A stretch of 64,000 nt of DNA, taken from positions 1 to 64,000 of the forward strand of contig JAEOUA010000003.1 in the NCBI GenBank assembly GCA_016839555.1, written 5' to 3'. The notes under the pieces are model-generated. The model was not told where the DNA came from and did not search any database. It saw only the letters and a program-made list of their open reading frames with translations. This DNA comes from Promethearchaeota archaeon. Its GTDB lineage: Archaea; Asgardarchaeota; Lokiarchaeia; Sigyniarchaeales; SOKP01. This document shows positions 9,788 to 18,176 of the stretch, one piece after another; positions within the stretch are counted from its first letter, which is position 1, and every line of letters starts with the position of its first letter. The position numbers and the translations under genes were made by a program.

Positions 9788-10657
9788 ATGGCCCATAAAT
9801 TTGAAGTACAGAACAAGAATAAATTTTTGAAAAACGTTTATATCATTATTTTATGTGCTGGAAAAGGAACGCGATTAAGAAAGATCACTAAGAAAATTCC
9901 TAAACCATTAATAAAAGTTAAGAATTTAGACAATAATCCAATATTATTCTACATTCTCAACTCACTGGTCAAGGCTCAAGTGAAAAATTTCGCAATTATT
10001 ATAGGATATTTGGGTCATAAGATTGCATCATTTATATCATCCTTATCAAAAATAAATCAATTTGAAAATTTGAATATCCAAATAATTGATTCCGAAGGGC
10101 AATATAAACATGGACCTTTATATTCATTTCTCTCCATTCAAAAAAATAATGAAATATTTCAACAAAATAAAGTATATCTCGTGATTCCAGGAGACACAAT
10201 TTTTCAGACTTCCTATTTTCAGCGATTAATTGATTTTATAATAAATAATATTAAAATTCTAAGTAAATATCCTGCTCTGTTTTATCGAACAATCTCTCTA
10301 GAAGATTTACAAAAAGAGTTAGGGTTTGAAGAACAGAAATTAATTTCAACCATAAAAACGAAGCCTTTCCAAAATCAATTTTTAGACAAAATAGTCACGA
10401 AAAAATTGATGGATTATAATAAAGAGAAAAAAATTAATCAAATTTACCCTACATTTCTTTTATCTTATCAAAGTGTCAGAAAAATTATAAATATTACAAA
10501 ATCTTTTGACGGAACTTCAATTAAACAAGTGATAAATTATCTCTGTCGAAGCGGAGATAAAGTCTATGTTAAAAAATTACAAAGAAAATATCTTTTTTAT
10601 GATATTGATAATGATAAAAATCTGGAAAGAGTACAAAAGGAAAAATTAAAAGGCTGA
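9788..10657 (+). CDS. NTP-transferase (sugar-phosphate nucleotidyltransferase family)
   Basis: IILCAGKGTRL...IPKPL, PGD, YDIDN. Confidence 0.8.
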   Translation: MAHKFEVQNKNKFLKNVYIIILCAGKGTRLRKITKKIPKPLIKVKNLDNNPILFYILNSLVKAQVKNFAIIIGYLGHKIASFISSLSKINQFENLNIQIIDSEGQYKHGPLYSFLSIQKNNEIFQQNKVYLVIPGDTIFQTSYFQRLIDFIINNIKILSKYPALFYRTISLEDLQKELGFEEQKLISTIKTKPFQNQFLDKIVTKKLMDYNKEKKINQIYPTFLLSYQSVRKIINITKSFDGTSIKQVINYLCRSGDKVYVKKLQRKYLFYDIDNDKNLERVQKEKLKG

Positions 10658-10719
10658 AAAATTATAAAAAGAAATAGCAAAGATCAGTAAGAAGAAAACC
10701 CGGAAAATAAAGAAAAAAG

Positions 10720-10917
10720 TGGATAATAGGAATTTCACTGAAACAATTTATTAACGTGCATTGTTTCAATGAATCGAAACGGATACGTTAGAAAAAATTA
10801 TTGCTAATGCTTTCTGGAGTTTCAATGGTTTTGTGTATTTTACTTTAGAACTCATAATAAATGCAATTAATTAAGAGTAGTTAATTTTCTGGTTGTTAAA
10901 ATGCTTTGATAATATCC
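10720..10917 (-). ncRNA. Candidate structured ncRNA A (~198 nt)
   Basis: Minus-strand BRE/TATA (AAAGTTTATA, 10943-10952) about 26-30 nt upstream. 5' GGAUAUUA pairs with 3' UAUUAUCC. A 14-bp hairpin (10734-10773) is fully paired only on the minus strand (one G-U). Second hairpin at 10850-10878. Followed by a U6 tract. Confidence 0.5.
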
Positions 10918-11002
10918 GAGATATAATGTTAAGTGATGATAATATAAACTTTAATATCAATCTGGTGTATTATTTTATATAGTAAAAAGAAAAACGCTTT
11001 TA

Positions 11003-11152
11003 AGATATTTCTAAAGAAATATTAGAGACTTCTGGTTACACAGCAATAAATATAAATAAAATGTCGGCAAGTTTACCCGAACTAAACCAACTTTATGTCT
11101 CATTGAGAGGGTATTTATTATTAAACCAATGCAAATTATTTCCTATTATCCA
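11003..11152 (+). ncRNA. Candidate structured ncRNA B (~150 nt), divergent from A
   Basis: TTTATA at 10974. Starts AGATATT like A and ends with the same 13-mer TTCCTATTATCCA. Nested stems GAGAC/GTCTC, TGGTT/AACCA, TCGG/CCGA, then CATTG/CAATG. Confidence 0.38.
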
Positions 11153-11336
11153 GATAAATAATGGGCTTTCAAATATTTAAATCTTTTGCTAATTAATTAA
11201 TAATTTGTTAGATTATGAGATAAAATATTTAATTAAAACAAATTTAAAAGCTATAAGCCGTTTCTTTATATAAATAAAAATTATTATAGTATTTCTCATT
11301 TGATAATTGTTAATCAGTTAATACTAGTGATTCACC

Positions 11337-11732
11337 ACGTCGCAAGATCAAGCAAATGTACCTATAAATATTCAATTATTTGGTATCGGAAATTTACAAG
11401 GTAAAATTATCCGCCATCTTGCACCCCTTTCTTCTGATGCGATTCTGAAAAAACTACCTTTGATTTTACGGGGCAGATTTGGACCGTCTTTTAAGTCAAA
11501 ACATTATTGGACACTTCCTGGAGTAGGTATCTATAAAGGACTTCATAAAAATGCTCAAAAGAAGGTAAATAAGGGGCAAATAGTCTATAATCCCAAAACT
11601 GATGAATTAATGATCATTTTAGAGGATCAAGAACTACCTACGAAAACAAATATTATTGGTGAGGTTGAAAATAATCTTGAGTTGGTCTTAAAAGCGCGAA
11701 ATGGGTTGAATACAAAAATATCTAAATTATAA
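11337..11732 (+). CDS. Cyclophilin-like fold protein (TM1367/DUF369-like); start extended upstream of the track call
   Basis: The frame is open 41 codons upstream of TTG 11460 and encodes IQLFGIGNLQGKIIRHLAPLSSDAILKKLP, the expected N-terminus. Putative ACG start at 11337. Confidence 0.7.
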   Translation, partial: TSQDQANVPINIQLFGIGNLQGKIIRHLAPLSSDAILKKLPLILRGRFGPSFKSKHYWTLPGVGIYKGLHKNAQKKVNKGQIVYNPKTDELMIILEDQELPTKTNIIGEVENNLELVLKARNGLNTKISKL

Positions 11733-11871
11733 GAGAAGTTATAATAATAGAAAAAATGCATTCTATTGAACTTAAAATCGCGACTCAATTAATCATTAGT
11801 TTTACTTCTTAATTATTTAATTAAAGAGCATATAAAACACCTTAATCAAATCACCAAAAAAATAATAAAAT

Positions 11872-12708
11872 ATGGCTGTCTCAAAAGTATTGAATTTAGT
11901 ATTCCTGAGTTTATTTTTAGTGGTTTTTATTTATTTAGTTTGCATTATTCTTTTTCCATCATTCCAGAAACTCATAATAGACGCACGAGAATTTTTTACC
12001 ATCTTTATTTATCAAACTAATTATTTTATCGCATTATTATTTGTCTTTATAGTATGCTTAATCGGAAATCTTAGTTTTGGATTCCCCATCCCCTATCCAT
12101 TCATCTTATTCAGCATAAGCAACTCAATCTATTTAAATTATAGCCATTTAAATATTTTTACGAGTCCTATTAGCTTAATATATCCCTTCTGGCTTCAAAT
12201 TCTGGGACTTACCTTTTCGGGAGGGCTAGGAAGTGCGTTCGGAGAGATGCTCGGCTATATCATCGGAAGAAAAGCAAAAGATATAGTAGGCGAAAAAAAA
12301 ACCCAAGTGATAAAAAATATTGAAGGATTCGGAAAAATTATATTAAAAAATCCAAGAAGAACCTATCTTTATATCTTTCTGTTTGCTGCTCTACCACTTC
12401 CTGACGATCCTTTATGGGCAAGTATTGGGTTTACAGTTAAAAATGAAAAGAGTTACAATTTTTCCCTCATCTCTTCAATCACCGCTGCGTGGATGGGTAA
12501 AAATGTTACAACAATTTTTTATTGCATGCTCCCGATACTTATTGCTCTTGGGCTTTATAATGCAGGAATACAAATAGATGATACTTCAAGCATTATTACA
12601 GAAGCAATATTCCTGCTATTTACGATCCTATTAATGTATATGATAATGGCCTTCGATTGGAACAAATATATAAAAGAAAAAGATTTATTGCGCTTCCAAT
12701 CAGAATAA
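11872..12708 (+). CDS. DedA/VTT-like integral membrane protein
   Basis: GGLGSAFGEMLGYIIGR and FAALPLPDD motifs; multiple TM helices. Confidence 0.65.
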   Translation: MAVSKVLNLVFLSLFLVVFIYLVCIILFPSFQKLIIDAREFFTIFIYQTNYFIALLFVFIVCLIGNLSFGFPIPYPFILFSISNSIYLNYSHLNIFTSPISLIYPFWLQILGLTFSGGLGSAFGEMLGYIIGRKAKDIVGEKKTQVIKNIEGFGKIILKNPRRTYLYIFLFAALPLPDDPLWASIGFTVKNEKSYNFSLISSITAAWMGKNVTTIFYCMLPILIALGLYNAGIQIDDTSSIITEAIFLLFTILLMYMIMAFDWNKYIKEKDLLRFQSE

Positions 12709-17840: not shown

Positions 17841-18176
17841 TCTATGTTAGATAAAGCATTCTTTAAATAAAAACTTAATAAATATAGCTTGTTATGGGAA
17901 CTTGCTCTCGATAAACATAAGCATATAAAATAAAAAAGTTTATTAAGCAAATTTTTCTTCTTTACAATTTTAATAAACTGAAATAAATATGAATATTGAA
18001 CTTAAAAATCCTTTTATATTTGGGATAACTGCGGGATATAATGTTAAAAATTCATATAAAAATTTGGAAAAGGTCTTAGGACAATTATTTTGAAAATAAA
18101 ATAATAATAAGAGATGGATGAAAATTAGCATTTAAATAGAAAAATAATATTCTTAAATATATAATTTGGTTTATAT

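Follow-up and report, generated by a model that had tools for sequence, protein, structure and literature searches.

The window analysed here is a 64,000-nucleotide stretch of an Asgard archaeal contig, in which a gap at 10658-11330 (74% A+T) separates an NTP-transferase gene (9788-10657, plus strand) from a cyclophilin-like gene on the same strand. The gap holds a perfect 13-bp inverted repeat, with TGGATAATAGGAA at 10720-10732 as its left arm and TTCCTATTATCCA at 11140-11152 as its right arm. Next to the left arm, two stretches (10734-10747 and 10760-10773, 93% complementary) form a hairpin with a 14-bp stem. Both features had been pointed out in a sequence-only reading of this DNA, which interpreted the gap as two divergent, paralogous small RNAs (A on the minus strand and B on the plus strand), transcribed outward from back-to-back TATA boxes at the centre. 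Each RNA would end in the same 13-mer, proposed to be a protein-binding or processing signal. The GATATT...AAAG strings that the reading placed at the two starts are present, and so are TATA-like strings at 10943-10948 and 10974-10979.

To judge the inverted repeat, we counted similar repeats in the window. There are three perfect 13-mer inverted repeats with arms at most 600 bp apart, against a mean of 5.7 (sd 3.3) in block shuffles. The 13-mer itself, with up to two mismatches allowed, occurs five times in the window, against 5.3 expected. The 13-mer repeat alone is thus at chance level in the window, and we took it as real because it is conserved in relatives (see below), not because of its count. 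The two further perfect repeats, TCTTTACAATTTT and TCTTGAAAGAATT, lie at 17959/18454 and 25481/26024 and served as chance-level controls.

Terminal inverted repeats of 13 bp and a size of ~430 bp are also what a decayed miniature inverted-repeat transposable element (MITE) might leave behind. The sequence-only reading had proposed a genome-wide count of the 13-mer as a check, and this count returned three exact copies in the 3.74-Mb genome, two of them at the locus and the third solitary, on contig C5, without a partner arm. A blastn search of the whole region against its own genome found only weak AT-rich matches elsewhere. Consistent with the earlier observation that transposon hallmarks are missing, the sequences flanking the two arms (outward of 10720 and 11152) show no direct repeat by eye that could be a target-site duplication, and there is no transposase among the three flanking ORFs scanned against Pfam (an M24 peptidase, the NTP-transferase, and one ORF without a Pfam match). 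Moreover, the element occupies the same syntenic place in 10 genera. The 13-mer is not dispersed, and we give the MITE explanation next to no credence.

We next describe the homologues, referring to the host's family of Loki-type Asgard archaea as f1, to its sister family as f2, and to genera as g1-g13, with the window in g1. In a blastn comparison with 40 relatives, both arm regions were kept in the closest species and the right-arm region in many genera. Of 151 genomes, 52, all from f1, contain one copy each of a right-arm motif, AACCAATG-N5-12-CTATTRTYC, against two control matches; an inverted partner arm was found 340-614 nt away in 30 of 37 loci. The large genus g11 escapes this pattern yet carries the element at the same syntenic place. 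The final set comprises 77 distinct sequences from 10 genera, all of one Asgard family, with predicted RNA lengths of 343-632 nt. The locus is syntenic across the 10 genera, and the RNA is kept in place despite changes of neighbour: g3 lacks the NTP-transferase gene and g6 the adjoining cyclophilin-like gene. In f2, the gap at the gene pair of the cyclophilin-like homologue is ~45 nt long and holds no such RNA. The predicted RNA is single copy and, across the genomes compared, confined to one family.

The alignments have a distinct pattern on each side. On the right-arm side, AAACCAATGCA-N-CTATTGTCC is followed 22 nt further on by TATTTAAAT-CTTTTT, and on the left-arm side, a hairpin is followed by CTATTGTCCA and then by oligo-T. 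Family-wide sequence conservation lies mostly at the two ends of the predicted RNA (~100 nt at the 5' end and ~60 nt at the 3' end), and its body is conserved within sub-clades only. The features predicted for the whole family are a promoter, a terminal helix with an invariant 9-bp core, a 5' CAUUGG, a hairpin beside the 3' strand of the helix, and a terminator.

The two arms change together. Numbering the pairs of the terminal helix (P1), positions 1-9 are paired in 77/77 homologues. Position 10 is G-C, A-U, or U-A, and it is canonical in 97% of homologues versus 49% after shuffling (0 of 1,000 shuffles reach the observed value); its pair type switches even inside genera g1 and g5. Position 4 alternates between U-A and C-G, with U.G intermediates in two genera, and position 2 shows one change, from G-C to A-U. 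We also ran RNAalifold on five members of the window's genus, which recovered the terminal helix and the 3' hairpin; 5 of the 27 predicted pairs were kept through two-sided changes, and for the 3' hairpin the figure is 3 of its 14 pairs. Judged from these substitutions, the two arms are the complementary, covarying strands of one helix. Because they pair and covary, the 13-mer proposed as a processing signal is better read as the terminal helix of a single transcript, and the homologue comparison bears out that part of the sequence-only reading which placed a structured non-coding RNA with closed termini in the gap. Across the family, covariation supports just the terminal helix and a few hairpins, and a complex fold like those of the large bacterial RNAs discussed below is only putative. 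The full-length minus-strand fold has z = -3.3 with the terminal helix included, and the opposite strand folds nearly as well (z = -2.8).

An element acting as DNA could also consist of inverted repeats around 340-630 bp of AT-rich, poorly conserved sequence, once per genome, with a 9-bp core as invariant as a protein-binding site. It might serve replication initiation, with origin-recognition boxes in opposite orientation on either side of an AT-rich unwinding region, or control of the neighbouring genes by a regulator bound at two inverted operators. Against this reading, the positions beside the core vary yet covary from arm to arm, and a protein site would have no need of such covariation. 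The flanks of the arms are also direction specific: one has a TATA at a fixed spacing (22-23 nt in nearly all), the other a hairpin and a T-run. The skew does not turn near 11 kb, and the four Orc1/Cdc6 genes (Cdc6_C matches) are on other contigs only (C12, C7, C10, and C5). Many archaeal origins, though not all of them, adjoin such a gene; its absence here makes an origin less likely but is not decisive. On balance, we regard a DNA-level element as very unlikely.

A direction of transcription is suggested by the sequences outside the arms. In 35/35 homologues picked without regard to TATA, a TATA box (TTTAAATA, TTTATATA, or TTTATAAA in minus sense) lies outside the right arm. In the 24 homologues in which spacing and purine content were measured, the TATA-to-arm distance is 22-23 nt in 23 and 27 nt in one, and the 7 nt 5' of the TATA are on average 85% purine. 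The base before the first G (-1) is T or C in 32/35. This TATA is nearly palindromic, so its predicted direction rests on the flanking purine tract; its BRE side is conserved, and the opposite side varies. Of 134 f1 genomes, 71 contain the pattern TTTAAATA-N19-25-GGAYAATAG, about once each; none of 26 genomes from six other families of the class does. At the opposite end, a T-run of at least 4 begins 0-7 nt past the left arm in 35/35 homologues and is at least 6 long in 33; a conserved T-run follows the left arm only. Wobble pairs point to the same strand. Among sequences with G.U or U.G pairs in the terminal helix, eight fit the minus-sense strand, with mismatches on the other strand, and two show the reverse. 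Similarly, a helix of a subset of homologues (type I, see below), GCUUUGAU/AUCGGAGC, contains two tandem U.G pairs in more than 50 sequences and is formable only on the minus-sense strand. Since the flanks of the two arms differ and each has a direction, we read the locus as one transcription unit, not two.

The same data bear on the two divergent paralogous RNAs. Their central TATA-like strings do exist, the left unit does resemble the 3' end of a minus-strand transcript (hairpin, arm, and T-run), and identical 3' motifs in paralogues might evolve in concert. The strings are not kept even within the genus, however: on the plus side, TTTATATAG has become TTTTTCACAG in the closest relative. The sole invariant promoter element is instead the one beyond the right arm, whose fixed distance is what a transcript starting at the arm would call for, and the plus strand has no T-run directly after the right arm. 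The U.G intermediates in P1 fit pairing of arm with arm. We also left out the arms and aligned the 5' half globally to the reverse-complemented 3' half. The two halves were no more alike than shuffles (z = 0.4; mean about 0 over the 77 homologues), so the motifs that the sequence-only reading saw in the same order in A and B are attributable to chance, and A and B are not paralogues. Two RNAs transcribed outward from central promoters are, on this evidence, a highly improbable description of the gap. A rod-like RNA or giant palindrome, which would have explained the ordered motifs in another way, was rejected as well, as the halves are not complementary beyond the arms.

We conclude, with a probability of roughly 70%, that the gap contains one minus-strand gene for a non-coding RNA of ~430-440 nt (from ~11151 to ~10713) whose ends are paired in a terminal helix. 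The parts of this predicted gene are collected in Table 1. As in its homologues, the window has CAUUGG within about 30 nt of the 5' end (in 11123-11133), a TATA ending 21-23 nt 5' of (Y)GGAYAAUAG, in a promoter pattern that matches the host genome once, and, 340-630 nt downstream, a complementary CUAUURUCC with a T-run (10721-10732; T6 at 10713-10718).

Table 1. Predicted parts of the RNA gene, listed from the promoter to the terminator (window coordinates).
Feature	Position	Strand	Basis
BRE-like purine-rich stretch, sense CAAAAGA	11182-11188	-	directly 5' of TATA; purine content in homologues
TATA box, sense TTTAAATA	11174-11181	-	22 nt 5' of the first G of the RNA; spacing in homologues
Predicted transcription start (G), preceded by a pyrimidine (T11152)	11151	-	predicted from TATA spacing
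P1 5' strand, GGAUAAUAGGAA	11140-11151	-	positions 1-9 paired in 77/77; compensatory changes at 2, 4, and 10
Conserved motif, UGCAUUGGUUU	11123-11133	-	8-10 nt after P1; alignments across genera
Hairpin with UUCGGGUA loop region	11063-11091	-	predicted in full-length fold
U-rich tract after GCCGACA	11044-11062	-	weak local form of the U5-12 run of relatives near +60 to +130
Variable RNA body	10774-11043	-	poorly conserved even within the genus
3' hairpin, 14 bp with 12-nt loop, abutting the P1 3' strand	10734-10773	-	folds and paired changes in the genus
P1 3' strand, UUCCUAUUAUCC	10721-10732	-	complementarity and covariation
Oligo-T terminator, sense TTTTTT C TT TATTTT	10704-10718	-	begins 2 nt past P1

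From these signals, the archaeal RNA polymerase would be directed by the BRE/TATA at 11174-11188 to start at about G11151, and transcription would run leftward and end in the T-run at 10704-10718. The homologue comparison shows that the 12 bases at the 5' end of the RNA are paired with the 12 at its 3' end (13 should transcription include T11152), which closes the molecule as in SRP RNA or RNase P RNA; the 14-bp hairpin stacks beside the 3' strand of P1, and the conserved UGCAUUGGUUU follows the 5' strand. We suggest that the product is a stable trans-acting RNA, probably a ribonucleoprotein scaffold. Protection would come from its closed ends and short 3' U tail, the 9-bp core of the helix, invariant in sequence, would form a recognition platform with the neighbouring motif, and the fast-evolving body would carry lineage-specific helices.

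Between its ends, the RNA is far less uniform. Most of the 430 nt is without family-wide structural support in the alignments, and in the window, 10786-10910 of the body has no blastn match even in the closest relative. Near the 5' end, CAU(U/C)GG is found at relative position 0.02-0.06 in all 10 genera, and g1, g3, g8, and most g2 sequences have a motif like UUCGGG further in, at relative position 0.07-0.2. UGCAUUGGUUU pairs over a long range in the full-length minimum free energy fold of the window's RNA, and we found no pairing partner for it that is conserved across genera. A candidate for a general partner, CYAAUGCA near the 3' end, is present in g8, g3, g5, and the window and absent from g2 and g11, and it was rejected.

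The homologues fall into two sub-types. The GCUUUGAU/AUCGGAGC helix marks type I (g2, g11, g5, g10, and g13), most genera of which also share the motifs CUUGUUGA and ACGAGACAU. In type II (g1, including the window, g3, g6, g7, and g8), the hairpin next to the 3' arm is plain and 14-16 bp long. The window's RNA, with its simple 14-bp hairpin, is accordingly without the type-I helix and without the internal motifs of g2 and g11. Another type-I motif, GAUACACGAGACAU, resembles the ACAGAGA box of U6; it is missing from g1, g3, g6, g7, and all but one g8 sequence, and we took the likeness as chance.

A U-run of at least 5 (U5-12) lies at +55 to +130 in 68/77 homologues, often after CCGACAA. Such a run is odd inside an archaeal transcript, as oligo-U is a terminator signal. 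Sense U-runs are not depleted overall (234 U-runs versus 161 A-runs), and the sense strand of the window has internal runs of U5, U5, and U6; its tract at the corresponding place reads only U4-A-U3-A-U-A-U3. The conserved run is possibly a partial terminator or a protein site, and it could end many transcripts early. Transcription on the same strand would then be attenuated or in two parts, with mainly a ~90-110-nt RNA ending at the internal U-run and the full-length form arising by read-through, or with a separate 3' product; in the window, the short RNA would consist of the hairpin at 11063-11091 followed by the U-rich tract. The position of the run in so many homologues, the hairpin directly before the tract in the window, and the concentration of conservation near the two ends all agree with this proposal. 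Covariation of the terminal helix, on the other hand, requires that the 3' arm be on an RNA that meets the 5' end. The type-I consensus has no conserved internal promoter, in type-I relatives, motifs as well as helices persist throughout the body and into the 3' domain, the tract of the window is only U4/U3, and g8 homologues are without any U-run of 5 or more in ~630 nt. We therefore consider a predominantly short product unlikely.

For the full-length RNA with paired ends, a more specific role can be imagined. It might be the scaffold of a family-specific ribonucleoprotein in which an Sm-like (SmAP/Lsm) ring recognises the internal CCGACAA-U(5-12), an archaeal counterpart of Sm-class RNAs; this is a speculative idea to which we assign a low probability. 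The RNA may also alternate between the terminal helix and a second pairing. A conserved internal CAAUAGGAGCUUUGAU lies ~85 nt before the 3' end in type-I homologues (L043-L053 and L081-L117). Its CAAUAG could displace the 5' end as the partner of the 3' CUAUUG, which would give two alternative closures of the RNA.

We compared the locus with known RNAs and elements. In agreement with the sequence-only reading, which recognised no class, Rfam models gave no match at E ≤10 here and none at E ≤5 within the RNA in 20 homologous loci. The archaeal SRP (7S) RNA gene (RF01857) is similar in being single copy, with its own TATA, paired ends in a terminal helix, and oligo-T directly after it, and the SRP RNA gene of the host genome has the same promoter-helix-T-run layout as the locus. 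That gene, however, lies at C3:96623-96943 (minus strand, 96.2 bits), and the SRP RNA covariance model has no match at the locus (Rfam, E ≤10, over 10000-12000); the RNA described here is longer, far more variable, and found in one family only. Archaeal RNase P RNA (RF00373) likewise is 300-450 nt long, is closed by a terminal P1 helix, and has a single gene per genome, but the host's copy is at C10:413196-413520 (plus strand, 147.7 bits) and the model does not match the locus. OLE (RF01071), ROOL, GOLLD, and the raiA motif are large, lineage-restricted bacterial non-coding RNAs of unknown function. They share size, lineage restriction, and non-coding nature with the predicted RNA; they differ in being bacterial, and none was matched in the Rfam scans of the locus and the 20 homologous loci. 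Lastly, MITEs and archaeal oriC regions with inverted ORBs resemble the locus in having short terminal inverted repeats around a few hundred AT-rich bp, from which it differs in its asymmetric flanks and in having no dispersed copies, no visible target-site duplication, and no Orc1/Cdc6 neighbour.

A coding function was considered and rejected. The tblastn matches of all sense-frame peptides were to the closest relative only, in overlapping frames; the median longest ATG ORF among homologues is 16 aa, and no ORF is conserved across genera. A 39-codon plus-strand ORF for a small protein (MSASLPEL...) has 20 codons in the closest relative and is, by eye, interrupted by TAA in other genera.

Few large stable RNAs are known in archaea besides rRNA, RNase P RNA, and SRP RNA. 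Our full-text literature searches yielded no account of this RNA, nor of any other large, lineage-specific non-coding RNA in Asgard archaea. A single-copy RNA of 340-630 nt with closed ends, kept throughout a family of Loki-type archaea, is a concrete and testable candidate for a new ribonucleoprotein in the closest prokaryotic relatives of eukaryotes. At this locus, a one-gene model replaces the two-gene model, and the predicted coordinates of promoter, helix, and terminator are usable for annotation and probe design.

Several side observations concern the genome and the neighbouring gene. First, the SRP RNA of the host, at 96.2 bits, falls just below the Rfam gathering score of 96.5, and default annotation may miss it. 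Second, aragorn at default settings found 12 tRNA genes in the 3.74-Mb genome, a low count that presumably reflects the introns in many Asgard tRNA genes. With only these 12, a promoter model based on tRNA genes was dropped, and the host SRP and RNase P RNA genes were used for the promoter comparison. Third, the cyclophilin-like assignment (PF18050, Cyclophil_like2) comes from an orthologue that passes the cut-off with 25.9 bits, the window's copy scoring only 15.3. This gene (11331-11732, plus strand) has an in-frame ACG at 11337-11339 where relatives have ATG (ATG TCn ... GCA GAT ...), with TTG at this place in the closest relative. Beginning at the first start codon listed for the window (TTG at 11460) would cut ~41 conserved residues. 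The ACG could be a non-canonical start, a sequencing error, or the mark of a decaying gene.
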